Shown here: piece after piece, positions 6,249 to 64,000 of the stretch | How the letters are laid out: the number at the start of each line of letters is the position of its first letter | How positions within the stretch are numbered: position 1 is the stretch's first letter | Virus record (IMG/VR): IMGVR_UViG_3300031726_000433 | Location: 34,722-98,721 of that record | DNA from: a virus | DNA: 64,000 bases | Direction: 5' to 3' (one strand) | Notes under the pieces: generated by a model | What the model was told of the DNA's origin: nothing | The model's input: only the letters and a program-made list of their open reading frames with translations | Databases searched by the model: none | Program-made: the position numbers and the translations under genes

Positions 6249-6263
6249 GGCATATTTATAGAC

Positions 6264-9977: not shown

Positions 9978-10009
9978 GATTTCTAATTAATAGATTGTCA
10001 AAAGACTTA

Positions 10010-10020
10010 CTATTTAGAAG
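10010..10020 (+). promoter_or_regulatory. Putative late promoter (TANTTA motif)
   Basis: CTATTTAGAAG immediately before the GGAGG SD. Confidence 0.55.
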
Positions 10021-10034
10021 TGGAGGTTCTCTGA

Positions 10035-10688
10035 ATGGCTGGATTCTTAGATAGAAATACACGAATTGTAGACATGGTTCTCACAAACAATGGGAAACGT
10101 TTACTTTCTAAGGGAGCTCTTCATTTTTGCTATTGGTCTCCATTTGATGACGAAATAGAGTATTCTCCAATCATAGCTGAAAGTGCTTCATTGACTCCAG
10201 TACAACTTAGTTCGTCGATCTACCAGTCAATAGAAACAACTCCAATTAGAGAAGCGACAACTGGATATAGAAATTTCAATGGTTTAGGTGAAGATACAAC
10301 CAACGTAATTCGTCCTTTATTTACAATGGCACAAGGACAGAGAATTCTTCCAAGGACACTATTCCCAGATAATTCTGCGAGAACGATTAAAACAAAACAA
10401 AGGAAAGTACAAAGAGTTTACATCCAGAATGGAAAGAGAGAGAAGTTTCTAAATCCAATAGAACCAGTAGATCTTGGAATGGAAAGATATGCATCAACAG
10501 CTGTCACTCTTGACTTTTCATATTCGAAAGATAGTTTTCCAACTGATTTTCAACCAGATGGATTTCACATGAAGATTCTAAGAAGCGGATCTCAGGGATG
10601 GACAGAGATTAATCCAAAGCGTGATATGAGTAATGATCTTTCATATCACAATGATATAAGGATTTTCACAGGTCGTAAGGGACGTTAA
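10035..10688 (+). CDS. Putative baseplate protein (paralog of 18875..19591)
   Basis: N-terminus GFLD...VDMVLTNNGKRLLSKG...DDEIEY aligns by eye with GFQD...IDAVLTDEGRERLAR...DDEIDY; GGAGG SD. Confidence 0.55.
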   Translation: MAGFLDRNTRIVDMVLTNNGKRLLSKGALHFCYWSPFDDEIEYSPIIAESASLTPVQLSSSIYQSIETTPIREATTGYRNFNGLGEDTTNVIRPLFTMAQGQRILPRTLFPDNSARTIKTKQRKVQRVYIQNGKREKFLNPIEPVDLGMERYASTAVTLDFSYSKDSFPTDFQPDGFHMKILRSGSQGWTEINPKRDMSNDLSYHNDIRIFTGRKGR

Positions 10689-10690
10689 AC

Positions 10691-14050: not shown

Positions 14051-14052
14051 AA

Positions 14053-31685: not shown

Positions 31686-32291
31686 ATGTTTGTATATGGA
31701 TTGATTGACCCATTTTCAAAACAACTTCGTTACGTTGGTAAAACGGAAGTTGGAGCTTCAAGGCCTAAGGCTCACTGGACAAGTCACAAAAATAGAAATG
31801 ACCGCTGTCATACGTGGGTACGATCTATTCTAAATAAAGAATCAATTCCGGAAGTAGAAATTTTGCAAAGTTGTAATAATAGAAATGAATTAAATGACGC
31901 TGAAATGTTTTGGATTGGATATCTAAAGATGACAGGGTGCAGATTAACAAATATGACTCCTGGTGGAGATGGTGTCGCGAAAGGGAATACACCCTGGAAC
32001 AAAGGAGCGACGTACTCAAGTCCAGCTATTTCAAAAGCAAAAAGAGGAGTCAAAACACGCCCATGCTCAGACGAAGTAAAAAGAAAAATATCTGAGAGTC
32101 TCAAAGGTAGAACACACTCTGCTGAGAGAGTAGAAAAGATCGCTGCAGCTCACAGAGGAAAGAAGCAAAGCAAAGAGCAAGTTGAAAAATTTACAAAGTC
32201 AATCAGGTCCTACTGGGATAGCTCTGAATCAGCCGAACATCGTCAAATCTTATCTGACAATATGAAAAAGATGAGAGTGACAAAGGGATAA
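31686..32291 (+). CDS. GIY-YIG homing endonuclease with NUMOD3-like DNA-binding repeats
   Basis: VYGLIDP...RYVGKT, E..WI, LTNMTPGGDG; PWNKG; KRKISESLKGRTHS repeats. Confidence 0.85.
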   Translation: MFVYGLIDPFSKQLRYVGKTEVGASRPKAHWTSHKNRNDRCHTWVRSILNKESIPEVEILQSCNNRNELNDAEMFWIGYLKMTGCRLTNMTPGGDGVAKGNTPWNKGATYSSPAISKAKRGVKTRPCSDEVKRKISESLKGRTHSAERVEKIAAAHRGKKQSKEQVEKFTKSIRSYWDSSESAEHRQILSDNMKKMRVTKG

Positions 32292-42734: not shown

Positions 42735-43259
42735 ATGGAAAATAAAATCAATGAATGCTTAGAGTGTAAAGAACAAACTTCCGAAATAGCTTATCACGTG
42801 AAAGTTATTCACAAGATGAGTTACAACAATTACGTTTCAAAACATAACCTTCCTAGAGTATGTCATTGTGGAAAAGAGTTATCGATCCCGAAGAACACGA
42901 AGGTCGAATCTGGCCGCGGCGGCGGAAGAACTCGCCAACACTGTTCACCACTTTGTAATCAACATGCAAATACTTGGTGGAGAGTCTATGGTCTTGAGCC
43001 AAGTGACTATTGGGATACTTTAGAAAAACAGAATGGCGTTTGCGCCATTTGTCATCAACCACCAGAAGATGGAGATAGACAATTTGCAGTAGATCATGAG
43101 CATGTCGACGGATATGAGAATATGACTCCAGAAGAAAAGAAAAAGTATTTCAGAGGTTTGCTCTGCATCGTTTGTAACAGGTTCAGACTTGCAAAAATTG
43201 ATCTTGAAATTGCTCGCAAGATTGTCTCATATCTCGAGTCGTACCATTCTAAGATATAA
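42735..43259 (+). CDS. Endonuclease VII-family (His-Me finger) putative homing endonuclease
   Basis: YGL...QNGVCAIC...FAVDHEH...RGLLCIVCN; N-terminal Cys/His-rich fingers. Confidence 0.85.
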   Translation: MENKINECLECKEQTSEIAYHVKVIHKMSYNNYVSKHNLPRVCHCGKELSIPKNTKVESGRGGGRTRQHCSPLCNQHANTWWRVYGLEPSDYWDTLEKQNGVCAICHQPPEDGDRQFAVDHEHVDGYENMTPEEKKKYFRGLLCIVCNRFRLAKIDLEIARKIVSYLESYHSKI

Positions 43260-49916: not shown

Positions 49917-50763
49917 GCACTCAGAATACCAGAATGTCACATTCGAAACAATAGATCAGGCTGTAGTATCGTGGTTTGATCAGACAGTTGATGCTCATGT
50001 TCTACAACCAAATGGTGATAGAAAAAAGGTAGTTGTTAACTTTTCAGCTGGAGAGCGCTGGATCACCGCACGTGAGCGCCGAGGCCTCCGTGATAAAAAT
50101 GGTGTACTTATCCTTCCGCTCATCTCTTTGCGTCGTACGGGCATCGAGCCTTCTCCAACCATGTCTGCTTTAGGTACCGAGACAGCCACTCTACAGATAT
50201 CAAAGAGAATTTCACCAAAGACAAATGACATTCAAAATCTTTACAAGAATAGAGATCCTCAATTTAGAACTCCATCTAAACCAACAGTTTATGAAGTTAC
50301 AACAATTCCATTTCCAGATAGATCAATCATATCATATGAAGTTCAAATTCAGGCACAGTATATTACACAAATGAATACTATCCTTGAAAAGATGTTTCAT
50401 GAACTAGATCTTAATAAATCATTTGTCGCACCATTTGAGAATGAAGGAAGACATCCGCCAATCGGTGTTCCATTCGAAGAAAGAAAACTTCTAGATAAAA
50501 GCTATGTCGTAGGATTTTTTGATGCTTCTGTTACTGATGGTGGTAACTTCGAAGAGTTCACAGATCAAGAAAGAATTGTAAGATTCAATACTTCCATTAG
50601 AGTACCAGCTGTTCTTCAATTGGATCCAGAGGGTGAGAAGCCATCTGTTCAAGTTGAAAGAACAGCATTCAAACTAGGATTCGCAGAAGAAAAGATCAAG
50701 TTTGTAGATGATCCATACGAACTAGAACTTATCTTCGGAGATGGAAAAGTAAGAGAGAAATAA
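49906..50763 (+). CDS. Tail terminator/sheath stabiliser (T4 gp15-like)
   Basis: ERW...LRDKNGVLILPLISLRRTGI, P.....ISYEVQI...QMNTILE; directly upstream of the sheath gene. Confidence 0.7.
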   Translation: MPIEHSEYQNVTFETIDQAVVSWFDQTVDAHVLQPNGDRKKVVVNFSAGERWITARERRGLRDKNGVLILPLISLRRTGIEPSPTMSALGTETATLQISKRISPKTNDIQNLYKNRDPQFRTPSKPTVYEVTTIPFPDRSIISYEVQIQAQYITQMNTILEKMFHELDLNKSFVAPFENEGRHPPIGVPFEERKLLDKSYVVGFFDASVTDGGNFEEFTDQERIVRFNTSIRVPAVLQLDPEGEKPSVQVERTAFKLGFAEEKIKFVDDPYELELIFGDGKVREK

Positions 50764-50802
50764 GAGAAATTGCAAGAAACGGTCATTTGAACCGCGTCTT
50801 TG

Positions 50803-50813
50803 CTAATTAGAAC
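50803..50813 (+). promoter_or_regulatory. Putative late promoter (TANTTA motif) for sheath
   Basis: CTAATTAGAAC. Confidence 0.55.
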
Positions 50814-50871
50814 GTGAAGGTGTCACCTTATATGTAGGTGCCCATCGTTAAATTTTCGGAGAGATAAAGAC

Positions 50872-53163
50872 ATGCAGAAATTTATGTCACCTGGGGTTTT
50901 TACCACTGAAGTTGATTTAAGCTTTCTGGCTCAAGGAGTTGCAGGAATCGGAGCCGTCCTCGTTGGTAGAACTCTGAAGGGACCAGCAATGGTTCCAATG
51001 TTTGTAAATGGTCTTGATTCATTTGCAAGTCTTTTTGGAGCTCCTACTCCAGGATACCAGCTTTCATATGCAGCCAAGAATTATCTAAAGAATTCAAATG
51101 CTTTGACTGTCGTAAGAGTTCTTGGACATGCTGATGGTACCACAACTACAAATGGATATACACTACCAGGAATTACAGGCATTTCAGACTCAGCTTCGGC
51201 TGGTCAACTTCTAGCAGTTCTTCACCACTCTGGTGCGGTATCTGTTGCTGGTGTTCCACTTGATGCAAACAACTTCATCGTTAGAGTTGGTTCAATCTTC
51301 GGTGCAACTGCTTCATTCCTCACATCTTCTGCGAACTACATCGAAAAGGTTCTTAACACAGACCCAACAAAGTTCTCTACATATGGTCACTATCTTTACC
51401 AGAACTTTAGCTATGTTACTCCAGCAGCTTCAGCTTCATGGGCTCCAGCCGGAGTAAGCGGCTCAACTCTTTCTTTTGCAAGAGACTTTACGCAAGGAAC
51501 TTCTGCCTGGACTACTTCACAACCAGTCGGTGGACAAGTATTCAATCTATTTAGATTCCACACATTGGCTCACGGTCGCGCAACAAATAATGATATCAAG
51601 GTGTTGATCGCGAATGTGAAGCCATCTCCAGCTCCAACAGCAACTCCGTTTGGAACATTCGATGTTATCGTAAGACAGTTCTCAGATACAGATCAAAGAG
51701 TTGTGACGCTCGAGACCTTTACAGGTTGCAACCTCGACCCATCTTCAAAGAACTTTATCTCTCGTGTAATCGGTGATCACCTAGAAGTATTCGATACAAC
51801 TCAGAGAAAGTTCCTAGGAAGCGGAGACTTCAACAGCAAGAGCAAGTTCGTCCGTGTAGAACTTGACACCTCAGTTAATGCCCCACTTGAAGCAATTCCA
51901 TTTGGACATAGAGGATACACTAAGGGACTCTTCTCTGGATCTGTCGCAACGATTCCAGATATGAAGTTGACACAGACTCAGTTCGATAGAGTTGGAAACC
52001 TTGATCAAAATATCTGCTGGGGAATTTCATTTGTATCTGGTGGAATCGAAGACAGAATGCGTGCAGATCCAAACAGCGCAGTTCTCTCTGCTGACTCTGA
52101 CTTCACGATGGCAAACTTGTCAGCCTCATGGCTAAATGGTAGACAGATTTGGACTCACGTTCCAAATCTTGCAGCAGCTTCACAGACAACTGCAATCTAC
52201 GCATCAGCTTCACTCTACAAGTTTAATCTTCCATTCCAGGGCGGGTTCGATGGTTGGGATCTTCGTGTGAATGATCCAACGTATCTATCAAACGTTTCAG
52301 ATGACACTGACATTGGCGTTCTATCTCTCAAGAGATCACTTGACACCATTGCAAATCCAGATGCATTCGATATGAATCTATTGGCGGTACCTGGTGTTCA
52401 CAACATCAAGGTAACAGATAAGGCTCGTGGAATCGTCAATGATCGTGGTGATGCTCTCTTTATCATGGACGTCACAGGATCGTCTGTATCAGAAGTTGTC
52501 GGTCAGTTGAAGGCTCGTGAAGTTGACGATAACTACACCGCATGCTACTACCCAGACATGAAGTTGAATGACAAGACAAATAACAGAATCATTAGAATTT
52601 CTCCGTCTGTCGCTGTTGTTGGTGCAATCGCATTCAGCGATAGAGTTGGACAAGTCTTCTTCGCTCCAGCTGGACTGAATCGTGGTGGACTTGGACAATT
52701 CGATATTGTCGACGTTGTCGATAGACTTACATTCCAGGACCGTAACGATCTATACGACAACAGAATCAATCCAATTGCGACATTCCCAAATGAAGGAATC
52801 GTTGTGTTTGGACAGAAGACACTTCAGATCAAGGCATCAGCCCTTGATAGAATCAATGTTCGTAGATTGTTGATCTATGCCAAGAAGACGATTGCTTCCG
52901 CAGCTAAGCTTCTTCTATTCGAGCCAAACAACTCTTCAACTTGGCAGCGTTTCTTGAACACAGTCAATCCTATCTTGGAAACTGTGCGTCAGAATCAAGG
53001 ACTTGAAAGATTCAAGGTTGTAATGGACACAACCACGAATACTCCAGACTTGATCGATAGAAACGTAATGACTGGAAAGATCTTCTTGCAACCAACGAAG
53101 GCAGCTGAATTCATCGACCTTTCATTCATCATCACAAATGCAGGTGTTGCATTCGGCGAATAA
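50872..53163 (+). CDS. gp18: Contractile tail sheath protein (T4 gp18-like)
   Basis: SPGVFTTEVDLS, VGRTLKGP, FAPAGLNRG, RINPIATFP..GIVVFGQKTLQ..SALDRINVRRLL, LFEPN, LQPTKAAEFI. Confidence 0.96.
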   Translation: MQKFMSPGVFTTEVDLSFLAQGVAGIGAVLVGRTLKGPAMVPMFVNGLDSFASLFGAPTPGYQLSYAAKNYLKNSNALTVVRVLGHADGTTTTNGYTLPGITGISDSASAGQLLAVLHHSGAVSVAGVPLDANNFIVRVGSIFGATASFLTSSANYIEKVLNTDPTKFSTYGHYLYQNFSYVTPAASASWAPAGVSGSTLSFARDFTQGTSAWTTSQPVGGQVFNLFRFHTLAHGRATNNDIKVLIANVKPSPAPTATPFGTFDVIVRQFSDTDQRVVTLETFTGCNLDPSSKNFISRVIGDHLEVFDTTQRKFLGSGDFNSKSKFVRVELDTSVNAPLEAIPFGHRGYTKGLFSGSVATIPDMKLTQTQFDRVGNLDQNICWGISFVSGGIEDRMRADPNSAVLSADSDFTMANLSASWLNGRQIWTHVPNLAAASQTTAIYASASLYKFNLPFQGGFDGWDLRVNDPTYLSNVSDDTDIGVLSLKRSLDTIANPDAFDMNLLAVPGVHNIKVTDKARGIVNDRGDALFIMDVTGSSVSEVVGQLKAREVDDNYTACYYPDMKLNDKTNNRIIRISPSVAVVGAIAFSDRVGQVFFAPAGLNRGGLGQFDIVDVVDRLTFQDRNDLYDNRINPIATFPNEGIVVFGQKTLQIKASALDRINVRRLLIYAKKTIASAAKLLLFEPNNSSTWQRFLNTVNPILETVRQNQGLERFKVVMDTTTNTPDLIDRNVMTGKIFLQPTKAAEFIDLSFIITNAGVAFGE

Positions 53164-53184
53164 CAGAATTTGAATAACGTTTAC

Positions 53185-53224
53185 TTGGGGATTGGGGTCT
53201 AAAGTCCCAATCCCCAAATTTTTA
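53185..53224 (+). terminator. Intrinsic terminator-like hairpin after the sheath gene
   Basis: TTGGGGATTGGG / CCCAATCCCCAA 12-bp stem followed by ATTTTTT. Confidence 0.7.
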
Positions 53225-53237
53225 GGAGAATACAAAG

Positions 53238-53633
53238 ATGCCAGCAATAGGCGACGCAATGGTAGCTCTTCCGCTATCTTCATCATTCAACGATCCTTGG
53301 GTTCACCAAAGAACAGTTATGCACACGAGAACCGCGACTGTGACTGTTATAACTGGATCAACCTCAAGTCAGTTAGCTCTTCCAGCTAATGCAAGTCGTC
53401 TCGGATATATTTTAGTAAATGATTCTCCAAGTCTTGTATATATGAAGTATGGATCTGGGCCAGCAAATTCAAACGCATTCTCAGTTATTCTTCCGCCGAT
53501 TGATCTTGCAGCAACTGCGTGGAAGTCTGCAATAGAACATGAGAACGTTGGTGTGGGTGTGTTCACGGGACAAATTCATGTTGTATGGTCGAGCGGTTCA
53601 ACTGGAAGTTTGAGGATCACGGAATTCACATAA
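53238..53633 (+). CDS. Small beta-rich virion protein (paralog of 54546..54917)
   Basis: ANASRLGYILVNDS..LVYMKYG...FSVIL...FTGQIHVVW...GSLRITEFT. Confidence 0.55.
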   Translation: MPAIGDAMVALPLSSSFNDPWVHQRTVMHTRTATVTVITGSTSSQLALPANASRLGYILVNDSPSLVYMKYGSGPANSNAFSVILPPIDLAATAWKSAIEHENVGVGVFTGQIHVVWSSGSTGSLRITEFT

Positions 53634-53634
53634 T

Positions 53635-53949
53635 ATGTCATGGTTTCCAGATAGCATAGTTGGATATCCTGTAAGTGGCTCAGAGCTAGGATTAATTGTA
53701 CGTCCTATTGGAGCCGGAGTTAACGGAGCTGTTCCTGTTCAACTTGCGGGATCATCTGGAAGTGGATCACTTCAGGTATCTGGATCAGTTAGTGTTTCTA
53801 ATCTATCTGACATTAGAGATGTAAATGTCGGGTATCTACTTGGAAGCATACTTATGGAGTTGAGGTATGTTAACTTTCATCTTTCAAAGATGACTGGGAT
53901 AGAAGATGTAGAAAGTGAAATAGATGCAGAAGAAGATTCCGAGGAATAA
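53635..53949 (+). CDS. Small hypothetical protein
   Basis: SGS-rich centre, LLGSILMELRYVNFHLSKMTG helix, acidic tail. Confidence 0.5.
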   Translation: MSWFPDSIVGYPVSGSELGLIVRPIGAGVNGAVPVQLAGSSGSGSLQVSGSVSVSNLSDIRDVNVGYLLGSILMELRYVNFHLSKMTGIEDVESEIDAEEDSEE

Positions 53950-53951
53950 AA

Positions 53952-54536
53952 ATGATTATTAAAGATCCATACACAGGTTTAGCTGCAAGAGTTGAAGAAG
54001 GTGGAAAACTCTTGACTGAATCTACAACAGAGTCTGAATTTCATGCTATATCCGAAGAAGGCGGAGGATATTCAGTAGGCCTTTATCAAACAGCTAATGC
54101 TTTTGTTGTTCCTCCAACTAGCGGATCTGCACTAATTTTTCTAAAAAACACGAGTGATAGTCAAGATATCATCTTAGAAAAGATCATGGTGTCTTCAAAT
54201 TCATCTCAACCAATAAGATTTGACGTAGAAGTTGGAAACACAATTGGTACAATTAGCAACGGTGCGGCTGTCGTACCAATCAACAACTCGACGCAACACT
54301 CTAATCAACCACCCGTTACATGCTACATTTGGGATGGCGTCAGTTCGATGAGTGGCATAAACGCAAATGGTGATAAGGTTTACAATTTTTATGCCGGTCC
54401 TGGACTTACACAATGCTCAACTGAATCTTCTAGATTCATAGGACCAAATAGCTCGTTTGTTATAAACGTGTATGGAGATGATGTGACGAAGATAACATTC
54501 TTTATATCATTTTATATGGAAGACATTTCGGAGTGA
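53952..54536 (+). CDS. Hypothetical beta-rich protein
   Basis: 194-aa ORF with GAGG SD inside the cassette. Confidence 0.5.
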   Translation: MIIKDPYTGLAARVEEGGKLLTESTTESEFHAISEEGGGYSVGLYQTANAFVVPPTSGSALIFLKNTSDSQDIILEKIMVSSNSSQPIRFDVEVGNTIGTISNGAAVVPINNSTQHSNQPPVTCYIWDGVSSMSGINANGDKVYNFYAGPGLTQCSTESSRFIGPNSSFVINVYGDDVTKITFFISFYMEDISE

Positions 54537-54545
54537 TAGAAAAGG

Positions 54546-54917
54546 ATGCCACTAGACATCCACATAATAGATCCAGGAACTGGAAATACAGCCAAGGTTA
54601 CAGATGGAGCCGTTCATGTAACTGGATCTGTAGTAACAGAGACGTGTCCCACATATGGATCATCAAGCTTAGCATATGCAACTTCTTCAAGTATTGCTCT
54701 TTTAGCTGCGAAAACAAGAGCTGGATTTTCTATTTATAATCATTCAATGGGTGTTTTGTATATCAAAATGGGAACAACAGTTTCGACTTCTTCATTTTCA
54801 GTAGCACTAGTTCCAAATGCATTCTATGAGTCTCAGAATGCATACTCAGGACAGGTATCTGGAATTTGGGAACCACCTTTGACAGGGAGCGCTCAGGTAA
54901 CTGAGTTTACTTGCTAA
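54546..54917 (+). CDS. Small beta-rich virion protein (paralog of 53238..53633)
   Basis: AKTRAGFSIYNHS..VLYIKMG...FSVAL...YSGQVSGIW...GSAQVTEFT. Confidence 0.55.
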   Translation: MPLDIHIIDPGTGNTAKVTDGAVHVTGSVVTETCPTYGSSSLAYATSSSIALLAAKTRAGFSIYNHSMGVLYIKMGTTVSTSSFSVALVPNAFYESQNAYSGQVSGIWEPPLTGSAQVTEFTC

Positions 54918-57900
54918 TGCCATTATACTCTCCTGGACAACAGATTTCAATAAACCTTTCACAGACAGTGAATGGTGTAGCTTCTATTTCTGCAGGAACT
55001 GGTGGAGTAACAGGTCCCGCTGTTTCATTTGCAGATTCAAATGGTGTTTCGTTCGGAATAGTTACTGACTCGAATGGAGGAACCATCACTGCTTCCGCAG
55101 CTGGAGGAATAGGTGGATCTGGAAATAAGATTGCGGCAGGCACACAGACTGCTAATGGAACTGCCACTGTAGTATTCTCGAATAGCAACGGTTTGACGTT
55201 TGGTATGTCGAATCAGTCTGTCATTACAGCCTCATATACTCAGTCAACTCATTCACACTCGACAGCTCCAGCGGCCATCGGAGCAGGAACGACAAGAGGT
55301 ACGGCTGGAACGATTTCATTCTCAAATAGTAATAACATCACGTTTGGAATGAATGGAAATACAATTACGGCATCTGCTTCATATTCTCAATCAACCGCAC
55401 CAGGTGCTTTAGCTGCAGCTGGTTCAACGTTAACGAATGGAACGGCTGTATTTTCTAACTCTAACAATATAAGTTTCGGTCTAAATGGAAGCACGATCAC
55501 GGCTTCTGCTTCATACAGTCAATCTACGTCTCCTGGAGCAATAGCGGCAGGCACACAGACTGGAACATCTGGGACTGTGGTGTTCGCTGACTCAAATGGA
55601 ATAGCATTTGGTATGTCTGGTTCTAGCCAGATAACAGCTTCATACACTCAATCTACTCACTCACACTCAACAGCTCCAGCTGCAGTATCTGCAGGAACAA
55701 CATTGGCTACAAGTGGAACGATTTCATTTGCCGATGGAAACAATGTTTCATTTGGAATGGATGCTGGAACAATTACAGCTTCTGCATCATATAGTCAATC
55801 AACCCATTCACATTCTACAGCTCCAGGAGCTATAGCTGCAGGAACGCAGACTGCAACTTCTGGAACTATAGTCTTCGCAGATTCAAATGGGTTATCGTTT
55901 GGACTATCTGGTTCAAGTCAGATAACAGCATCTTACACTCAGTCTACACACTCTCATTCTACGGCTCCTGGAGCAATCGCAGCCGGAACAACGAATGCTA
56001 CGAGTGGGACAGTATCATTTGCAAATTCAAACGGTCTTGCGTTTGGCATGAATGCTGGAACGATAACTGGTTCTTACACTGTCCCAACACAGTCAGTACA
56101 GTCATACAATGTAAATGCGGCTGGTACACAGACCGCTAATACTACTGGAACTGTAGTGTTTAGTAATTCAAACAATATATCGTTTGGAATGACTAACAAT
56201 TCTATAATAACAGCGTCTGCTTCTTACTCACAGTCAACTGCGCCGGGTGGATTGGCTGCAGGAACTCAAACGGCAACGTCTGGTACAGTGGTGTTCGTCA
56301 ACTCAAATGATTTTACATTTGGTATGACGAACAGTTCTCAGATCACGGCTTCATTTTCTCAGTCAACACACTCACATTCGACAGCCCCTGCCGCTATAGC
56401 TGCTGGTGGGTCAACTGCGACGAATGGTACTATCGTTCTTTCTAACTCGAACAATGTATCATTTGGATTCAACGGTTCAACTATAACAGCGTCAGCTTCG
56501 TATAGTCAGTCTACATCACCGGCTGGCTTCGCAGTAAATGCATCCACTGAGACAAACGGAACAATCGTCTTCACGAATAGCAACAATGTTTCGTTCGGAT
56601 TCAATGGATCAACTGTCACTGCCTCTGCTTCATTCCCTGCTCAGACTGCTCAATCAGCTATCAGAGGTCTTGGCGTAAGCAACACTGGAACCACAGCTGG
56701 AAACACTGGAGTGTCGACCGGAGTCGATTGGGTAATTGCCGGCAGTGGTAACATTACAGCATCGCAGTCGACAGCTGCAGGTGGTCCGAACACAATCTGG
56801 TTGTCAGTACCAGCAGCTGGAGCATTTGGTGGAGTGGCAGCAGGTGGTTCCACTGAGACGAATGGCACAGTTGTATTCTCGAACTCAAATAACGTTAGCT
56901 TCGGATTCAATGGTTCTACGATAACAGCGACAGCTTCTTACTCTCAGTCTACTGCTCCAGCAGCAATTGCAGCAGCTGGTTCTACAACCACGAATGGAAC
57001 TGTCGTATTCTCGAACTCGAATAACGTTTCATTCGGAATGAATGGAAGCGTTATAACAGCAACTGTAACGATGACTCCAGGAGCCGGAGACGGATTCAAT
57101 AATATCGCAGCAGGTACTCAGACGGCAGGAACTTCTGGAACAGTTGCATTTTTGAATTCTAATAATGTGACATTTGGCATGACTAACAGCTCTCAAGTCA
57201 CAGCTTCATTCTCTTATAGTCAATCAACGGCTCCATCTGGTATCGCTGCATCAAATGCTTCTACCGTAACTAACGGTGTCGTCCAGTTCGCGAATGGAAA
57301 TAACGTAACATTCGGACTGAACGGTTCTACTATCACTGCTTCAGCTTCATACAGTCAATCTACACAACCAACGATCAAGGGTCTTGGTGCTTCCAATACT
57401 GGAAACACAGCTGGAAATACTGGAACATTCACTGGTGTAGACTGGGCTATAGCAGGATCTGGCGGAATTACAGCTTCTGGTTCTACCACGAACGCAACAG
57501 GTCCTCATACTCTATGGTTGTCAGTTCCAACAGGAGCTTCTGCGACAGGAAATCTTGGCGGAGTTGCTGGATCTGGAGCATCAACTGTAACGGGCGGGAC
57601 TGTTCAATTTGGAAATGCAAATGGTGTGTCATTCGGTCTAAACGGATCGACGATGACTGCTTCTTATACTCAGTCTACATCTCCTTCTGGCATTGCAGCA
57701 TCAAATGCTTCCACTGTCACGAATGGCACTGTACAATTCGCAAATGGAAATAACATAACATTCGGATTGAATGGAAGCACGATTACAGCATCGGCCTCTT
57801 ACTCACAGTCAACTGCACCAGGCGGATTTGCAGTCAACGCTTCCACAGAGACAAATGGCACGATCGTCTTCACCAACTCTAATAACGTAAGCTTCGGATT

Positions 57901-60900
57901 TAACGGTTCGACGGTGACGGCTTCAGCATCATTTGCTCAAACTAATCAATCTGCAATTAAGGGATTCGGTATTTCTAATACAGGAACAACTGCTGGAACA
58001 TCTGGCATGTTTACTGGTGTAGATTGGGTCCTTGCAGCTTCTGGAAACATTACGGCTTCTGGCTCTACAACGAATGCTACTGGTCCTCATACTCTATGGT
58101 TGTCAGTACCTGCACAATCAACTGTACCAGCTGCAGTTGCTGTAAACGGTTCAACTGTAACAAACGGAACTGTCGTATTCTCCAATAGCAACGGTGTTTC
58201 ATTCGGAATGAATGGATCTACTATCACCGTTACAGTTACTCCAGGTGCCGCTGCTGGAATCGCAGCTCAAGCAGCAGGAACTCAAACTGCAACGTCTGGA
58301 ACTGTAGTTTTTGCTAACTCTAACAACTTCACATTCGGGATGAGTGGAAGTTCTCAGATTACAGCATCATTCTCTGAATCTACTCACGGTCATACTTTCA
58401 ATCAGCTTGCAGCAGGTACTCAGACAGCTGCAAATGGAAGTACGGTTGTATTTTCAAATAGTAATAACTTTACATTCGGAATGACAAATAGCAGCATCAT
58501 TACTGCTTCATTCTCAGAATCTACTCACGGACACACGTTTAATCAATTGGCGGCTGGTACACAGACTGGCGCTAATTCAAGTACCGTAGTCTTCTCGAAC
58601 AGTAACAATGTAACGTTCGGCATGACAAATAGTTCTATTATTACAGCGTCCTTCTCATACACACAGTCTACTTCTCCAGCAGCACTTGCAGTTAATGCCG
58701 CAGGGTCTATAACTGGTGGTACAGCGGTCTTCTCAAACTCTAACAACGTGACGTTCGGTCTGAACGGTTCTACTGTAACTGCCTCAGCTTCATTTGCTGC
58801 CCAGACAACACAATCTGCAATCAAGGGTTTAGGTGTTTCAAATACAGGTACAACAGCTGGTAACACTGGAGTCTTTACTGGCGTAGACTGGGCAATCGCA
58901 GCGTCAGGAAATATCACAGCATCTGGTTCTACCACCAACGCGACTGGTCCTCACACACTCTGGCTTTCAGTTCCAGCTCAATCAACTGTTCCAGCTGGCT
59001 TTGCAGTTAACGCTTCGACCGAGACAAATGGAACCATTGTCTTTACAAATAGTAACAACGTTTCATTCGGTTTCAATGGATCTACCGTAACAGCTTCAGC
59101 TACATTCGCCCAAACAGCTCAGTCTGCGATTAGAGGTCTTGGAGTTTCTAACACTGGAAACACAGCTGGAAACACTGGTGTTTCAACAGGAATAGATTGG
59201 GTTATTGCTGGTTCGAATAACATAACTGTCTCACAGTCGACAGCTGTAGGTGGTCCGAATACGATTTGGATCAACCAGACTGGAGGCGGAGGCGCTGGCG
59301 ACGGGTACAATATTCTTGCAGCTGGTACTCAGACAGCAAATACGACAGGAACAGTTGTCTTTGTAAATAGTAATAACTTCACGTTCGGAATGTCTAATAA
59401 CTCTCAGATCACAGCTTCATTCTCTGAGTCAACGCACGGACATACATTCAACCAGGTCGCTGCAGGAACTCAAACTGGTGCAAATGGAAGTACTGTAGTC
59501 TTCTCGAACTCCAACAACGTGTCCTTTGGAATGACGAACAGCTCTATTGTTACTGCTTCGTTCTCATACACACAGTCTACGTCACCAGCTGGTATCGCAG
59601 GTTCTGGCGCATCGACCGTAACAAATGGAACAATTCAGTTTGCAAATTTGAACGGCATCTCGTTTGGACTAAATGGTAGTACCATGACAGCTTCTGTATT
59701 TCCACATGCTCATGCGGCAGGTGGAGTTACATTTACTGGTACTTCTGGTACAGTTGTATTCTCGAACTCAAATAACGTTTCATTCGGATTGGGCGGTGCT
59801 GGTAGCACCATAATGACAGCTTCTGCTTCGTTTGCTCAGACGACGCAGTCTGCAATTAGAGGTCTAGGTGTTTCTAATACTGGAACGACTGCTGGTAACA
59901 CTGGTATATCAACAGGTGTAGATTGGGTAATTGCAGGATCTGGAAATATTACAGCCTCACAATCTACCGCTGTTGGTGGACCAAATACAATTTGGTTGTC
60001 CGTCCCAACTGGCGGTGGTGGAGGTGCTGCAATTTCAGCCGCTGGTGGTTCTCAATCTACTGGAACTGTTATATTTTCTAACTCAAACGGTATATCGTTT
60101 GGATACAACGCTGGAACGATAACTGCTACAGTAACTCCAGGTGCCGCTGCTGGAATCGCCGCTATGGGTGCTGGAACACAGACAGTGACATCTGGAACAA
60201 TAATATTCGCTGACTCAAATGGAATTGCATTCGGTCTATCTGGCTCAAGTCAGATAACGGCATCATACAATGATGTAGATTTTAACTTTGCAGTTCCAGG
60301 AACAACTCTTGCGTCAAATGCTGGCGGCTCAATTGTATTCTCAAACTCAAACGGTGTTTCTTTCGGAATAAACGGTTCAACGATAACTGCGTCTGTAAAC
60401 GGATTCACGGCGTCAACTGCTCAAAATAGACAATTGGGAGCATCAACCACAATCGCCCCAGGACAAAGCAGTTTGTGGTTATCTCCAATTAGACTTCCAA
60501 ATCCTCTATCTGCTTCAACGATGATGATCATTCAGAGCTTTTCTGGCACAATAACATCTGCTGCAACTGCACAATTTGGACAGAGTTTGTTGATGGCTCT
60601 CTATTCTCAGAATGCAACCAATACTTCTAGATTCGATACATACTGGACTGGAGCAAAGAGCATGACGTTCTGGAACAGCGGAACTTCAAGTTACTCTTAT
60701 AGCTACGATACTTTTAGCAGTTCTAGCGCAGGAAGCAACATCGGAACTGCAAGCATCATGGGATTGAGAATGCACAACTTCACAATAGGATCAATAATTC
60801 CAGCTGGTTTGTATCTGGCTGCGTTTCTTCCAATAACATCTTCTGCTGGATATTCTGCTGCAATGTCAAGAGCTGTTATGGTATACGACGCACCAATTCC

Positions 60901-61063
60901 TCTTGGAATGGGAACGATAGGACAGGCAACGAACAATACGGTTGGATATGTTGATGGAGGAGTACTCAGCGCACAGACAGGGGCGTTACCAGCTTCTATA
61001 GCACTTGGCGACATTCGTCAGACATCAAACATAATGCCATACTTTAAGATTGGAGCAATTTAA
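54917..61063 (+). CDS. Giant (2048-aa) Ser/Thr/Gly/Ala/Asn-rich repeat protein, putative long fibre/appendage
   Basis: ATG overlaps the upstream TAA. By hand count about 32 type-A repeats (GT.VF.NSN..[ST]FG....[IV]TAS), 6 type-B repeats (I[RK]G.G.SNTG.TAG..G..TG.DW) and 9 HxH motifs, then a non-repetitive C-terminal domain. Confidence 0.7.
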   Translation: MPLYSPGQQISINLSQTVNGVASISAGTGGVTGPAVSFADSNGVSFGIVTDSNGGTITASAAGGIGGSGNKIAAGTQTANGTATVVFSNSNGLTFGMSNQSVITASYTQSTHSHSTAPAAIGAGTTRGTAGTISFSNSNNITFGMNGNTITASASYSQSTAPGALAAAGSTLTNGTAVFSNSNNISFGLNGSTITASASYSQSTSPGAIAAGTQTGTSGTVVFADSNGIAFGMSGSSQITASYTQSTHSHSTAPAAVSAGTTLATSGTISFADGNNVSFGMDAGTITASASYSQSTHSHSTAPGAIAAGTQTATSGTIVFADSNGLSFGLSGSSQITASYTQSTHSHSTAPGAIAAGTTNATSGTVSFANSNGLAFGMNAGTITGSYTVPTQSVQSYNVNAAGTQTANTTGTVVFSNSNNISFGMTNNSIITASASYSQSTAPGGLAAGTQTATSGTVVFVNSNDFTFGMTNSSQITASFSQSTHSHSTAPAAIAAGGSTATNGTIVLSNSNNVSFGFNGSTITASASYSQSTSPAGFAVNASTETNGTIVFTNSNNVSFGFNGSTVTASASFPAQTAQSAIRGLGVSNTGTTAGNTGVSTGVDWVIAGSGNITASQSTAAGGPNTIWLSVPAAGAFGGVAAGGSTETNGTVVFSNSNNVSFGFNGSTITATASYSQSTAPAAIAAAGSTTTNGTVVFSNSNNVSFGMNGSVITATVTMTPGAGDGFNNIAAGTQTAGTSGTVAFLNSNNVTFGMTNSSQVTASFSYSQSTAPSGIAASNASTVTNGVVQFANGNNVTFGLNGSTITASASYSQSTQPTIKGLGASNTGNTAGNTGTFTGVDWAIAGSGGITASGSTTNATGPHTLWLSVPTGASATGNLGGVAGSGASTVTGGTVQFGNANGVSFGLNGSTMTASYTQSTSPSGIAASNASTVTNGTVQFANGNNITFGLNGSTITASASYSQSTAPGGFAVNASTETNGTIVFTNSNNVSFGFNGSTVTASASFAQTNQSAIKGFGISNTGTTAGTSGMFTGVDWVLAASGNITASGSTTNATGPHTLWLSVPAQSTVPAAVAVNGSTVTNGTVVFSNSNGVSFGMNGSTITVTVTPGAAAGIAAQAAGTQTATSGTVVFANSNNFTFGMSGSSQITASFSESTHGHTFNQLAAGTQTAANGSTVVFSNSNNFTFGMTNSSIITASFSESTHGHTFNQLAAGTQTGANSSTVVFSNSNNVTFGMTNSSIITASFSYTQSTSPAALAVNAAGSITGGTAVFSNSNNVTFGLNGSTVTASASFAAQTTQSAIKGLGVSNTGTTAGNTGVFTGVDWAIAASGNITASGSTTNATGPHTLWLSVPAQSTVPAGFAVNASTETNGTIVFTNSNNVSFGFNGSTVTASATFAQTAQSAIRGLGVSNTGNTAGNTGVSTGIDWVIAGSNNITVSQSTAVGGPNTIWINQTGGGGAGDGYNILAAGTQTANTTGTVVFVNSNNFTFGMSNNSQITASFSESTHGHTFNQVAAGTQTGANGSTVVFSNSNNVSFGMTNSSIVTASFSYTQSTSPAGIAGSGASTVTNGTIQFANLNGISFGLNGSTMTASVFPHAHAAGGVTFTGTSGTVVFSNSNNVSFGLGGAGSTIMTASASFAQTTQSAIRGLGVSNTGTTAGNTGISTGVDWVIAGSGNITASQSTAVGGPNTIWLSVPTGGGGGAAISAAGGSQSTGTVIFSNSNGISFGYNAGTITATVTPGAAAGIAAMGAGTQTVTSGTIIFADSNGIAFGLSGSSQITASYNDVDFNFAVPGTTLASNAGGSIVFSNSNGVSFGINGSTITASVNGFTASTAQNRQLGASTTIAPGQSSLWLSPIRLPNPLSASTMMIIQSFSGTITSAATAQFGQSLLMALYSQNATNTSRFDTYWTGAKSMTFWNSGTSSYSYSYDTFSSSSAGSNIGTASIMGLRMHNFTIGSIIPAGLYLAAFLPITSSAGYSAAMSRAVMVYDAPIPLGMGTIGQATNNTVGYVDGGVLSAQTGALPASIALGDIRQTSNIMPYFKIGAI
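55020..60400 (+). repeat. Degenerate intragenic tandem repeats (~120-150 nt units)
   Basis: Protein repeats are highly similar while synonymous positions differ between copies. Confidence 0.8.
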
Positions 61064-61100
61064 AAATTTCTTTGTCATATGAAGTTGTAATTAAACACAT

Positions 61101-61844
61101 ATGACAGACAAAATTAACGTTGAAGATGTTGTCTCTGATTTTAAATCAAAGGGTTTCAAAAACGTAGAGTTGATAAGTGGAACAACCTACAAGGATAATT
61201 CTACAGTTGTTATAATCCCAACTAGAGGAACTATCAACTACAAGGTTGTTCAATCATGGCAGAATATGATTGCTCCTATGAATCAAAAGAGAGCTTTCAT
61301 ATTTGCTACAGGTCACGAAGTTGGTCAAGCATATAATGAAATGATTAAGAACATACTTCTTAATCCTGAACTTTCAAAGTGGAAGTATGTTCTAACTTTA
61401 GAAGATGACAACATACAACCATCCGACGCTCACATCAGACTTCTTGAAACAATAGAAACACATAAGTTTGATGCAGTATCTGGTCTATACTTCACAAAGG
61501 GTGAATATGGAATGCCAATGGCATATGGCGATCCTGATCAATATAAGCAGACTGGTGTTCTTGACTTTAAGCCACGTGATGTAAGAGATGCTATCAAGAA
61601 TGGTCACGTGATGCCAGTAAATGGAATTGCCATGGGATGCAGTCTTTACAGGATGGATCTATTCAGAGAGATTCCAGCTCCTTGGTTTGTAACTTTGAGC
61701 GACATAATTCCAGGGAAAGGTCCAGCTTGTTTCACACAAGATCTTTATTTCTGTGAAAGAGCAGTGAAGGCTGGTAAGAGATTCGCTGTAGACATGAGAG
61801 TAAGAGTAGGACACTTAGACATAAATTCAGGGGAAGTATACTAA
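61101..61844 (+). CDS. GT-A fold (GT2-like) glycosyltransferase
   Basis: VVIIPTRG, AYNEMI, YVLTLEDD (DxD-like), AVSGLY, IAMGCSLYRMDLF, QDLYFCERA..AG....D..V.VGH. Confidence 0.82.
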   Translation: MTDKINVEDVVSDFKSKGFKNVELISGTTYKDNSTVVIIPTRGTINYKVVQSWQNMIAPMNQKRAFIFATGHEVGQAYNEMIKNILLNPELSKWKYVLTLEDDNIQPSDAHIRLLETIETHKFDAVSGLYFTKGEYGMPMAYGDPDQYKQTGVLDFKPRDVRDAIKNGHVMPVNGIAMGCSLYRMDLFREIPAPWFVTLSDIIPGKGPACFTQDLYFCERAVKAGKRFAVDMRVRVGHLDINSGEVY

Positions 61845-61853
61845 GAGGAAAAT

Positions 61854-62489
61854 ATGGCAAAGAAAAAGAAGGTATCACCAGCGGTTGTTCCAGCAGCTCC
61901 AGTTCTTGCAAAACCAACGACACTTGTGAAGCTAGATCTCGCAGCAGGACAAAGACCGAGAGAAGGATTTGAAGGAGTCGATATCTGGCCTCAGTCAAAG
62001 CATGTTGTAGATTTGACCAAGTTCCCATGGCCATTTGAAGATAACTCAGTTGAGGAACTTCATTGTTCTCATTACGTAGAACATATCCCAGCAAGAGAGA
62101 TTGAAGCGAGAGATCTTGCTGATCCAAAGAGAACTGATCTTCTTGGCAAGGATCATCTTTTCGCATTCTTCGATGAGTGCTTTAGAATCTTGAAGCCAGG
62201 TGGAGATATGAGAGTGATTGTGCCAGCTCTAAGAAATAACAGAGCGTTTCAGGATCCAACTCATAGAAGATTCCTACCAGCTGAGACCTTCCTCTATTTG
62301 AACGCCGAGTGGAGAAAGATGAATATGCTTGATCACTATCGAGCTGATTGTAATTTCGGTGTGAATATCAATCCAACTGTTCCTGTCGAAATTAATCTTC
62401 TAAATCCAGAAACTGCCAATGTAAGGATGAACAATTACTGGAATGTCATCATTGACTGGGATGCGACATTGAAGTCATTAAAGACTTAG
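61854..62489 (+). CDS. Class I SAM-dependent methyltransferase (Methyltransf_11-like)
   Basis: KLDLAAG (motif I variant), GVDI, DLTKFPWPFEDNSV, SHYVEH, ECFRILKPGG, DPTH. Confidence 0.85.
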   Translation: MAKKKKVSPAVVPAAPVLAKPTTLVKLDLAAGQRPREGFEGVDIWPQSKHVVDLTKFPWPFEDNSVEELHCSHYVEHIPAREIEARDLADPKRTDLLGKDHLFAFFDECFRILKPGGDMRVIVPALRNNRAFQDPTHRRFLPAETFLYLNAEWRKMNMLDHYRADCNFGVNINPTVPVEINLLNPETANVRMNNYWNVIIDWDATLKSLKT

Positions 62490-62511
62490 ATTCCAATCAT
62501 ATTCTAAGTTT

Positions 62512-62543
62512 AGAAGACCCATCTTATGATGGGTTTTCTTTTT
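62512..62543 (+). terminator. Intrinsic terminator closing the inserted cassette
   Basis: AGAAGACCCATC-TTAT-GATGGGTTTTCT followed by T tract. Confidence 0.75.
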
Positions 62544-62708
62544 GTATAATATGCTCCTATTATATCATCTTGAACTTTTCTGTGACGATCTGGAGTGATT
62601 CTGACTGAAAGATGAATGCTTCCACCATTTTAAGGCAGATTCACACAGACGACCTCGAGATGATTTGATAGAGAATTTAGAAATTCTGTTAAAAAAGAAA
62701 TCTCATCA

Positions 62709-62719
62709 ATAGTTAGAAC
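62709..62719 (+). promoter_or_regulatory. Putative late promoter (TANTTA motif) for tube
   Basis: ATAGTTAGAAC downstream of the cassette terminator. Confidence 0.55.
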
Positions 62720-62760
62720 CGAAGGCTTTGAAGTTTTATGCCTGGAAGGAGATCTAAGAG

Positions 62761-63249
62761 ATGAGTGAAACACTTGACATTGCGCAACTTTTGGCCAATA
62801 ATTATGAACCGAAACGCAAATTCAGATGGATACTTCAGATTGATGGCATTGATGCCTTCGTCTTGAAGACTGCTGCACGTCCACAGGCAACTTTTGAAGA
62901 AACAGTTATTGACTATATCAATGCTAAGCGCTATGTGTCTGGTAAGATGGCATGGAATCCTATTGCAATCACCACTCACGATCCAGTCGCTCCTTCTGCA
63001 GCTCAGAAGATCATGGACTGGCTTAGACTTGACTATGAGCCTCTAACTGGAAGAATGGGTTATGCTACGTTCTACAAGAAGGATATTTCATTGAAGCTCC
63101 TTGATCCTCAAGGAACTGTCGTTGAACTATGGGATATCAAGGGCGCCTGGCCTCAGGACGTCAACTTTGGCGATCTTGACTATGCTTCTTCTGACAACGT
63201 GGAAATTTCATTTACTCTACGTTTTGATAATGCAACTTTGCAGTACTGA
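62761..63249 (+). CDS. gp19: Tail tube protein (T4 gp19-like)
   Basis: YEPKRKFRW, ARP, YVSGK..WNPI, GYATFYKKDI.L..LDP.G.VVE.W...GAWP.DVNFGDLDY; AGGAG SD. Confidence 0.9.
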   Translation: MSETLDIAQLLANNYEPKRKFRWILQIDGIDAFVLKTAARPQATFEETVIDYINAKRYVSGKMAWNPIAITTHDPVAPSAAQKIMDWLRLDYEPLTGRMGYATFYKKDISLKLLDPQGTVVELWDIKGAWPQDVNFGDLDYASSDNVEISFTLRFDNATLQY

Positions 63250-63257
63250 GGTGAATC

Positions 63258-63482
63258 ATGGTCAAGCTATCAAATGTATTTGTGTTGTCTGAGGGTCCAA
63301 TTCAACCTAATCAGAAAGTAGAAAAGCTGTTTGATAGTCCAGTGCTTTCGCAGTTCTCAGAACGTGATTGGCTAGATCTAGCTCTTTCTTCTTTAGATCA
63401 AGCTGGCATACCATCTTCCATTGTAAATAAAATACAGAAAATGGCAGAAGATAGTATGCCTAGCTTAGGTGACGGGCAATAA
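63258..63482 (+). CDS. Small hypothetical (putative head) protein
   Basis: GAGGTG SD; MVKLSNVFVLSE leader resembles that at 43561. Confidence 0.5.
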   Translation: MVKLSNVFVLSEGPIQPNQKVEKLFDSPVLSQFSERDWLDLALSSLDQAGIPSSIVNKIQKMAEDSMPSLGDGQ

Positions 63483-63485
63483 TAC

Positions 63486-63686
63486 ATGATCTCAACAAAA
63501 ACCATAACAATTATAGTTGTTCTCGTTGCAATCGCCGTCGTGATTGCTTGGGATATCTTTGCCGTATCGAATCCTATTCCAGGTGACACAGTTTCAGAAA
63601 TGACGTTTAATGCAGCTAAAGCAAATCCTATTATCCCGTTCGCACTTGGTGTAGTATGTGGACATCTATTTTGGGGACAAACATGA
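63486..63686 (+). CDS. Small two-TM membrane protein
   Basis: Hydrophobic N-terminal segment and PIIPFALGVVCGHLFW. Confidence 0.55.
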   Translation: MISTKTITIIVVLVAIAVVIAWDIFAVSNPIPGDTVSEMTFNAAKANPIIPFALGVVCGHLFWGQT

Positions 63687-63922
63687 ATATCTGGGAAAGA
63701 GCATTAAGAGAAGCAGATGCAACGCCAAAGACTCCAAGCAACACATCTCAGGATTGGAAGCCAGAAGTTCCATCAAACTCAAGAACTGTTCTTGGTGATC
63801 TTAAGGATGACGAACTTCACGCTGTTCTTTCTGCTCTCTTTATGTTTAGAGATGATCAGGAAGTTCAGAAGAGTCAAAGAGATATCGTTGCAAAGGTATT
63901 GGCAAAAATTAGTGGTAAGTAG
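63683..63922 (+). CDS. Small hypothetical (putative head) protein
   Basis: ATGA overlap; MNIWERALREA leader. Confidence 0.5.
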   Translation: MNIWERALREADATPKTPSNTSQDWKPEVPSNSRTVLGDLKDDELHAVLSALFMFRDDQEVQKSQRDIVAKVLAKISGK

Positions 63923-63952
63923 TTCACTTTAACTTATAGAAAGATATATAAT
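63923..63952 (+). promoter_or_regulatory. Possible sigma70-type promoter
   Basis: TTCACT-N18-TATAAT. Confidence 0.35.
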
Positions 63953-64000
63953 TTTATGAACGAACCAAACCATCACGAATCAAGCCATCACGGATTCTGA

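Follow-up and report, generated by a model that had tools for sequence, protein, structure and literature searches.

In Microcystis phage Mel-JY01, the nearest cultured relative of the virus considered here (37% identity in the tail sheath protein and 44% in the tail tube protein), and in Flavobacterium immuto phages, the sheath and tube genes form an adjacent pair, separated by 94 and 57 nt, respectively. In the viral DNA analysed in this work, a stretch of 64,000 nt of the IMG/VR record IMGVR_UViG_3300031726_000433 (hereafter the window), the distance from the sheath stop to the tube start is 9,597 nt, and seven open reading frames (ORFs), all on the + strand, are placed in between, including those for a giant repeat protein, a putative glycosyltransferase (GT) and a putative methyltransferase (MT). 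What is this cassette, and on what do its two enzymes act? The first-pass annotation of the locus had described it as a self-contained, exchangeable appendage module encoding a fibre and the enzymes that modify it. As set out below, the cassette is composite: a clade-specific hotspot set, comprising small proteins of a family here named S123, is joined to a widely mobile trio made up of the giant protein, GT and MT genes.

The trio is a horizontally mobile module

Loci (numbered with the prefix L) were fetched around homologues of the window GT, 82 from viral contigs (38–81% identity) and 80 from metagenome-assembled genomes (MAGs; GTDB contigs), and linkage was counted by ORF ends, within 5 kb and only for loci with enough flank. 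The giant protein was followed through its C-terminal domain of ~250 amino acids (aa), designated CDOM, using a profile built from its last 270 aa. MT was found downstream of GT in all 74 viral and all 70 MAG loci that could be scored, and a CDOM ORF was found upstream of GT in 66 of 77 viral loci, in addition to two in which it lay elsewhere in the locus, and in 65 of 69 MAG loci. The complete trio was present in 58 of 69 viral and 60 of 64 MAG loci and, after dereplication at 90% GT identity, in 50 of 61 and 52 of 56, respectively. The linkage of both enzymes to the repeat protein in other genomes, on which the first-pass annotation had staked its interpretation, is thus borne out. These counts are lower bounds: at least four of the nine CDOM-less viral loci showed low-charge ORFs rich in S/T/G/N/A just 5′, and that of L056 ends in a CDOM-like manner. 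In the reverse direction, all 12 loci found by the repeat motif alone carried a CDOM ORF, and GT and MT lay downstream of it in seven of the eight previously unseen contigs.

The 56 dereplicated viral loci fell into 37 flank groups with no flank homologue in common. The gene order is TerL-portal-CDOM-GT-MT-protease in L030 and TerL-portal-o100-CDOM-GT-MT-...-major head protein in L085; in L100 and L079 the trio stands beside tail and connector/head-closure genes, and in L107 it is carried by a 42.6-kb genome described as ‘Podoviridae sp.’. CDOM-GT-MT is a separate horizontally mobile module in many unrelated phages. The distance matrices of GT and MT were correlated (Spearman 0.61, Mantel p = 0.005), and by this measure the two enzymes are inherited as a pair. 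For GT 1220 homologues were recovered, the best 120 of which are all at least 62% identical, tighter than the sheath among sheath relatives. Mean identity across the trio was 52% for GT, 45% for MT and 23% for CDOM, the last being near saturation.

The trio adjoins major structural genes in the window, in L030 and in L085, and in mycobacteriophages glycans are carried by capsid and tail-tube C-termini, according to an excerpt of PMC12619734. Both points would suit an alternative in which the sugar is added to another protein of the virion (that of capsid, sheath or tube) and the CDOM protein is an unmodified fibre transferred along with the enzymes. We regard this as very unlikely, since the structural neighbours vary from locus to locus and CDOM is the sole constant one, and since the trio persists in Saccharimonadales chromosomes, where a comparison of the ten neighbours of one such trio (L133) with Pfam revealed no capsid or tail family.

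CDOM is the constant partner of the enzymes

The N-terminal 1790 aa of the giant protein consist to 68% of S, T, G, N and A and include 33 charged residues. The repeat region comprises ~31 units of ~45 aa with the consensus TxTxGTVVFxNSNNVSFGxNxSTITAS, among which six longer ‘GVDW’ units are interspersed; at the DNA level, a single 141-nt tandem array was the only one detected. The alternation of short hydrophobic strands with Asn/Gly turns suggests that the repeats may fold into a fibre of the beta-solenoid type.

In viral loci the CDOM profile matched 93 ORFs, each time at the C-terminus; in MAG loci it matched 88. The family is large: of 1.84 billion cluster representatives, 4415 belong to it at a threshold of E ≤ 1e-3, and 2083 remain when this is tightened to E ≤ 1e-30. 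The members listed reach 3125 aa, and in the 150 listed representatives the best-matching stretch ends at most ~30 residues from the C-terminus, except for a few rows that correspond to a single repeat unit. Comparison with PDB profiles gave no match, that with Pfam and PHROG gave scattered single-member matches, and neither a family relative nor an informative source name emerged, and a tblastn search of GenBank phages gave no match, so that no cultured phage with CDOM was found. Near-invariant positions of the domain are Y118, G186, Y188 and G237. Minimal CDOM proteins of 226–246 aa with no more than one repeat unit (L113, L114, L030 and L035) retain both GT and MT, and therefore it is CDOM, and not the repeats, that is the constant partner of the enzymes.

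Two or more CDOM paralogues occur in seven viral and seven MAG loci, often in tandem 5′ of one GT. In L041 (2720–9900) and L065 (3525–9910), seven tandem CDOM paralogues of 124–444 aa are followed by one GT, an array that looks like a cassette of alternative fibre heads.

Two predicted soluble enzymes

The identities of both enzymes rest on profile matches that range from weak to moderate. GT matched phrog_12406 ‘glycosyltransferase’ at 2.5e-5, three of 35 close homologues matched PF00535 (best 1e-5), and one homologue is labelled ‘GT2 family glycosyltransferase’ by JGI. It contains an acidic DxD-type motif, LTLEDDN. Across 66 sequences of 36–80% identity, E101 and D103 of this motif do not vary and N104 hardly does; its LEDDN part would form the metal/nucleotide-sugar site. 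MT matched phrog_6636 at 8.8e-8, and its family profile led to PDB 3dli ‘methyltransferase’ (5.9e-7) and to 27 weaker PDB matches, mostly methyltransferases; the window protein itself scored 19.4 bits with PF08241, below the cut-off of 21.2. The glycine-rich motif I, which is the S-adenosylmethionine (SAM)-binding motif of class I methyltransferases, has the family consensus KLDLGCGQ with a nearly invariant G32 and reads KLDLAAGQ in the window, degenerate yet aligned. Judged by these matches, MT is clearly a class I SAM methyltransferase. No hydrophobic or membrane segment was found in either enzyme (maximal 19-residue hydropathy 0.91 in GT and 1.23 in MT).

Pairs of a methyltransferase and a glycosyltransferase that hypermodify phage DNA, by base methylation followed by glycosylation, are known, as an excerpt of bioRxiv 10.1101/2023.12.21.572611 relates. 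A role of this kind for the present pair is hardly credible: the MT profile fits Methyltransf_11-like small-molecule or O-methyltransferases, none of the 28 listed PDB matches is named a DNA methyltransferase, and the genes are located in structural operons, not in replication modules, and also in bacterial chromosomes.

In temperate phages, seroconversion genes sit near tailspike genes, and GT and MT might likewise remodel a glycan of the host envelope (superinfection exclusion or receptor masking), standing near the fibre gene because receptor-related genes travel together. A larger sugar-metabolism island is indeed present upstream of the window, at ~6.5–26 kb of the same contig and 30–45 kb upstream of the cassette. 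It encodes three PF01370 epimerase/dehydratases of the NDP-sugar type and two PF00535 GT2 domains, one of which shares an ORF of ~1100 aa with a GT1 domain. Another GT1 domain scored above the cut-off, and a weak one below it. In Saccharimonadales, moreover, the trio is found among signal-peptide and membrane-anchored proteins, and phage GTs are taken as modifiers of cell wall or lipopolysaccharide in the cyanophage literature, as far as an excerpt of PMC12801897 represents it. We nevertheless consider a host-directed role unlikely. Besides the lack of membrane segments in GT and MT, neither Bac_transf (PF02397) nor a Wzx-type flippase (PF01943), nor DegT or NTP_transferase, was detected in the 98.7-kb contig, which is 48% complete, and the CDOM-GT-MT order persists, within head and tail operons, across the 37 viral flank groups, which are unrelated to one another.

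The trio in cellular genomes

Among the dereplicated MAG loci, 38 of 49 belonged to one flank group, and most of L130–L178 are similar to L133, which occupies positions 4671–13904 as fetched from an 805-kb Saccharimonadales MAG contig. There, the neighbours of the trio include genes for an rpoD-like sigma-70 factor and a P-type cation ATPase, paralogous proteins with a signal peptide and a C-terminal anchor are encoded around it, and the ORF directly 5′ of CDOM specifies 234 aa that end in a fibre-like motif. The small protein before CDOM in L133, as well as those in L027 and L051, ends in what we take to be a motif of phage fibre proteins. In L180 and L184 the trio was found on contigs binned as Bathyarchaeia and Nitrososphaerota, which represent either archaeal viruses or binning errors.

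The prevalence of one flank group, whose annotated member L133 is chromosomal, would be expected if the CDOM protein were a cell-associated or released glycoprotein (coat, matrix or decoy) with a role in Saccharimonadales that phages have borrowed, and CDOM also lacks a PHROG structural family, with two weak tail-fibre matches among 72 members. The CDOM proteins that were read have no signal peptide, the gene is co-oriented within late structural operons of viral contigs, and the upstream proteins with the presumed fibre motif in L133, L027 and L051 again point to a virion; such a non-virion role is, on balance, distinctly unlikely.

A proposed fibre modified by its own enzymes

The reading we favour, to which we give a probability of about 0.5, is that the CDOM protein would be a fibre of the virion and the substrate of the soluble GT and MT encoded with it. 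It is preferred because of the strict CDOM-GT-MT order in unrelated structural operons, the solubility of the enzymes and the precedent of the chloroviruses (see Discussion). The module of a fibre with its own enzymes proposed in the first-pass annotation therefore survives in part: the linkage, the soluble enzymes and the lack of lipid-linked export genes in the contig speak for it, and it had to be amended in that the partner of the enzymes is CDOM instead of the repeats and that more GT and sugar genes are present 30–45 kb away.

We envisage the cassette as having two layers. The first would be a clade-specific hotspot that collects fast-evolving fibre-like proteins, represented by s131 and s123 together with the clade-restricted s104 and s194, and the second the mobile module of a CDOM protein (variable repeats and a conserved C-terminus), a soluble GT and a soluble MT. 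The trio would be transcribed late, alongside the structural genes. In the cytoplasm, GT would move a sugar from a nucleotide sugar to the CDOM protein, recognised through its conserved C-terminal domain, and MT would then methylate that sugar, methylation of the protein being less likely. Assembly would then place the modified fibre, nearly uncharged and probably beta-solenoid-like, on the virion as an appendage of its surface; the repeats and CDOM would diversify fast while the enzymes stay conserved. The model thus postulates the CDOM protein as substrate, its membership of the virion, the place of attachment and the sugar used. More tentatively, these loci might together represent an undescribed mobile system of self-glycosylated surface fibres, common to many phage lineages (myo-, podo- and small head-operon phages, and perhaps archaeal viruses) and to Saccharimonadales/Patescibacteria, in which the enzymes would dock on CDOM and add a methylated sugar; we see this broader proposal as possible, with the odds somewhat against it.

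Several observations weigh against a fibre modified by its own enzymes. The window GT has no Pfam or NCBIfam match, and its best match among PDB profiles, 2c0n ‘A197’, has an E-value of 0.0055 and covers 52 profile positions, corresponding to the C-terminal conserved block of the GT family. At least four further GT domains above the cut-off are encoded by the same phage, and the cassette enzymes might accordingly serve another acceptor. No Ser, Thr or Asn is invariant in CDOM. The CDOM distances, near saturation as they are, barely track those of the enzymes (r = 0.07–0.09) and give no sign of co-evolution between enzyme and substrate. One repeat-protein locus, L188, has neither GT nor MT within 9 kb, and the chromosomal location of the trio in Saccharimonadales implies that the family is not intrinsically part of a virion. 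Finally, N-x-S/T sequons were counted 75 times in comparison with 52.4 ± 5.7 in shuffles, a modest enrichment that follows from the structural repeat, many units having NG instead of NN and thereby losing the sequon; as the repeat motif explains it, it was not used as evidence of N-glycosylation.

The sheath–tube gap is a hypervariable hotspot

A search with the sheath gave 22 relatives on viral contigs (49–76% identity), in 11 of which the tube gene was reached, with tube identities of 70–88%. The gap between the two genes was shortest in L012 (159 bp), followed by L007 (611 bp, with one S123-family gene) and six near-identical loci (2.55 kb); in L006, L024 and L019 it measured 5.2, 7.1 and 9.3 kb, respectively. 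In L018 and L021 the sequence continued for more than 10 kb past the sheath without a tube gene. Among the relatives whose gaps were compared, L019 alone contained the same cassette, with identities to the window of 56% for s123, 33% for s194 and ~39% for the giant protein, and of 81% for GT, 83% for MT and 86% for the tube. The other gaps were occupied by differing long, low-charge proteins, many of which begin with MP(I/L). The gap is therefore a hypervariable hotspot in this phage clade, ranging from 159 bp to >10 kb, with the S123 domain as its hallmark, and the exchange of the region surmised in the first-pass annotation is evident from the different fibre-like genes at this site. Four sheath-relative contigs searched for GT contained none; as fragments of 14–34% completeness they are uninformative in this respect.

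The S123 domain of ~85 aa is common to s131 and s123, and iterated hidden Markov model searches started from either protein led to one common set of 26 ORFs, distributed over 22 loci. A word-based homologue search with s123 gave two matches, which reflects the limited sensitivity of that method. S123-family ORFs were present in 16 of the 22 sheath-relative loci, and the domain occurs alone (96–148 aa) or as the C-terminus of fibre-like gap proteins (205–1026 aa). In L025, L038, L041 and L065 such an ORF is the immediate upstream neighbour of the first CDOM gene, and in L057 and L069, too, one precedes a CDOM gene. Apart from scattered single-member Pfam and PHROG matches, searches of Pfam, PHROG, NCBIfam and PDB gave no match for s131 or the S123 family. 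A relationship between the S123 family and CDOM was considered and ruled out (hhalign probability 0.3%). Gap proteins of L005, L006 and L019 begin with a segment that matches the N-terminal ~60 aa of s104, and the one homologue of s194 among the fetched loci is found in L019 at the same position; neither s104 nor s194 matched a family in Pfam, PHROG or NCBIfam.

Two further gap proteins were recorded in loci with no GT or MT in the fetched flank: in L021 (14211–22652) an open-ended giant ORF exceeding 2814 aa, and in L020 (3066–5768) a 900-aa Gly-run protein with an S123 domain. In a distant 484-kb megaphage, LR756508 (L001, LR756508.1 203000–219000), the sheath–tube gap is 7.3 kb long and holds unrelated genes. 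Among them are two long ORFs of 589 and 795 aa (5539–9653), paralogous to each other and with many CxxC pairs; a third paralogue (506 aa, at 13516–15036) follows the tube. Upstream of the sheath stands another sheath-like gene. The gap ORFs may be paralogous genes of the nuclease type.

Layout and expression of the cassette

The features of the region are compiled in Table 1. The T4-type contractile sheath and the gp19-like tube are securely identified by their profile matches. Between them, in agreement with the packed cassette reported in the first-pass annotation, the ORFs are spaced by 1–38 nt or overlap by one base, as is the case for the giant gene ATG and the s123 stop. The start of the giant gene at this ATG is supported by the homologue in L019, which begins with MPLYQ.

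Table 1. Sheath–tube region: features and their positions in the window.
Feature	Position	Strand	Remarks
Tail sheath, 763 aa, upstream border of gap	50872–53163	+	phrog_23 E = 4.5e-66; PF17482 1.5e-11, over cut-off
Terminator-like hairpin 3′ of sheath	53185–53217, with T-run to 53227	+	14 pairs, 7 GC
s131	53238–53633	+	S123 domain family, paralogue of s123
s104	53635–53949	+	Conserved N-terminal segment, acidic tail
s194	53952–54536	+	Small protein, no family match
s123	54546–54917	+	S123 family; stop overlaps giant gene ATG
Giant repeat protein, 2048 aa	54917–61063	+	Translation; repeats 54917–60250, CDOM 60251–61063
GT, 247 aa	61101–61844	+	Predicted GT-A-like (GT2-like) glycosyltransferase, soluble
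MT, 211 aa	61854–62489	+	Predicted class I SAM-dependent methyltransferase, soluble
Terminator-like hairpin 3′ of MT, closing trio	62512–62539, with T-run to 62549	+	12 pairs, 5 GC
TAGTTAGAA, candidate tube promoter motif	62710–62718	+	51 nt upstream of tube start
Tail tube, 162 aa, downstream border of gap	62761–63249	+	phrog_4542 3.6e-33; PF06841 29.2 bits vs cut-off 28.2

The hairpins noted earlier at each end of the cassette are the two strongest of 11 terminator-like sites within 50500–64000, the total number not exceeding that in shuffles (9.4 ± 2.5). L012, a relative without the cassette, has a similar hairpin 3′ of its sheath gene (12356–12385). In L019 no hairpin was detected after the sheath, and one was found at the same place 3′ of MT (21407–21434). 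The sheath-side hairpin is probably the terminator or attenuator of the sheath gene itself.

The motif upstream of the tube gene, which had also been noticed before and is confirmed here, is one instance of TANTTAGAA, a candidate promoter element of the phage as judged from its number and placement. It occurs nine times in the window versus 2.98 expected, and one of 100 shuffles reached nine. The + strand copies at 10011, 29566, 34135, 39722, 50804 and 62710 precede six ORF starts by 9–90 nt, among them those of the sheath, the tube and the gene preceding the major head protein, and no copy was found within 53238–62543. The T4 late-promoter consensus TATAAATA gave five matches versus 1.95 expected, all on the minus strand, and was rejected as a promoter here. 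Because TANTTAGAA precedes the sheath and the tube yet is absent from the cassette, the latter is probably expressed by read-through past the sheath hairpin. Taken with the presence of the sheath hairpin in L012 and the joining of a hotspot set to a mobile trio, this absence contradicts the view of the cassette as self-contained.

The window is the final part of a 98.7-kb linear virus contig with a CheckV completeness of 48%, and all its large ORFs are on the + strand, in the order terminase, portal, protease, major head protein, connector-like genes, sheath, cassette and tube. Terminase and portal are separated by a homing-endonuclease-like gene (31686–32291), and the major head protein gene is immediately followed by an EndoVII-like gene (42735–43259). 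The stretch is present in 24 DNA runs of peat metagenomes, no RNA run being among those listed. Contigs from three runs other than the source cover the region at ≥99% identity, parts left uncovered not being evidence, and one weak joint inside the repeats among those contigs (side 21) is not interpretable. A megablast comparison of the whole region with GenBank phages gave no match.

Discussion

The glycosylation of virions by enzymes of the virus is known from chloroviruses and mycobacteriophages; of the trio, the CDOM family and the sheath–tube hotspot no description was found in the literature searched. A paper on jumbo phages calls the glycosylation of phage structural proteins ‘rarely identified’ (PMC5852040). 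If the broader proposal of a shared, mobile self-glycosylation system is right, virion protein glycosylation would be common in environmental phages and not a curiosity of mycobacteriophages, and the phages concerned would possess a hypervariable appendage resistant to protease and antibody. The minimal module, a protein of ~230 aa with two soluble enzymes of ~200–250 aa, would offer a simple, portable test system. A large unannotated protein family now has a name, within a module that has thousands of relatives in dozens of unrelated contexts and links phages with the ultra-small Saccharimonadales bacteria, and the sheath–tube junction of one phage clade, as a hotspot of appendage swapping, bears on host range and on the annotation of ‘hypothetical’ fibre genes.

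Several known systems invite comparison. Bacterial repeat adhesins that are glycosylated in the cytoplasm (HMW1/HMW1C, AIDA-I/Aah, TibA/TibC and the serine-rich-repeat proteins) resemble the trio, by analogy only: next to the gene of the long adhesin, with repeats rich in N-x-S/T or in Ser/Thr, lies that of its own soluble transferase, which acts on it ahead of assembly. They differ in that their substrates carry secretion signals and that no methyltransferase is an obligatory partner, and adhesin transferases belong to other GT families (GT41, heptosyltransferases, GT-B). The hypervariable regions of T4-like phages and cyanophages likewise gather variable host-interaction genes at a junction of the conserved core, whereas the site described here splits the sheath–tube pair. 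Unlike in Gtr-type seroconversion, GT and MT are not membrane-embedded and a flippase partner is missing from the contig, at its completeness of 48%. Among solved structures, the best match of the GT family profile, weak as it is (E = 0.0055), is to STIV (Sulfolobus turreted icosahedral virus) A197 (PDB 2c0n), a glycosyltransferase-like viral protein, presumably with a GT-A fold and from an archaeal virus.

The likenesses to chloroviruses and mycobacteriophages are by description. In chlorovirus PBCV-1 (Paramecium bursaria chlorella virus 1), the capsid glycan is built and O-methylated by enzymes including A064R, which combines a GT-A domain, a second GT and a class I methyltransferase domain, and A061L, a class I methyltransferase of 209 aa, as given in an excerpt of PMC9614988. 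A soluble GT-A-type transferase and a class I SAM methyltransferase of ~200 aa would thus be of the same classes and sizes as the enzymes of the trio; PBCV-1 is, however, a eukaryotic giant virus in which the acceptor is the major capsid protein and the enzymes are fused and do not adjoin the acceptor gene. In the mycobacteriophages Che8, Corndog and Myrna, phage-encoded GTs modify the capsid and the tail-tube C-termini (PMC12619734, as excerpted, citing Freeman 2023). As in those phages, the GT is encoded in or next to a structural operon, between sheath and tube in the window and between portal and protease or the major head protein elsewhere, but here its constant partner is a dedicated fibre-like family and a methyltransferase is always attached.

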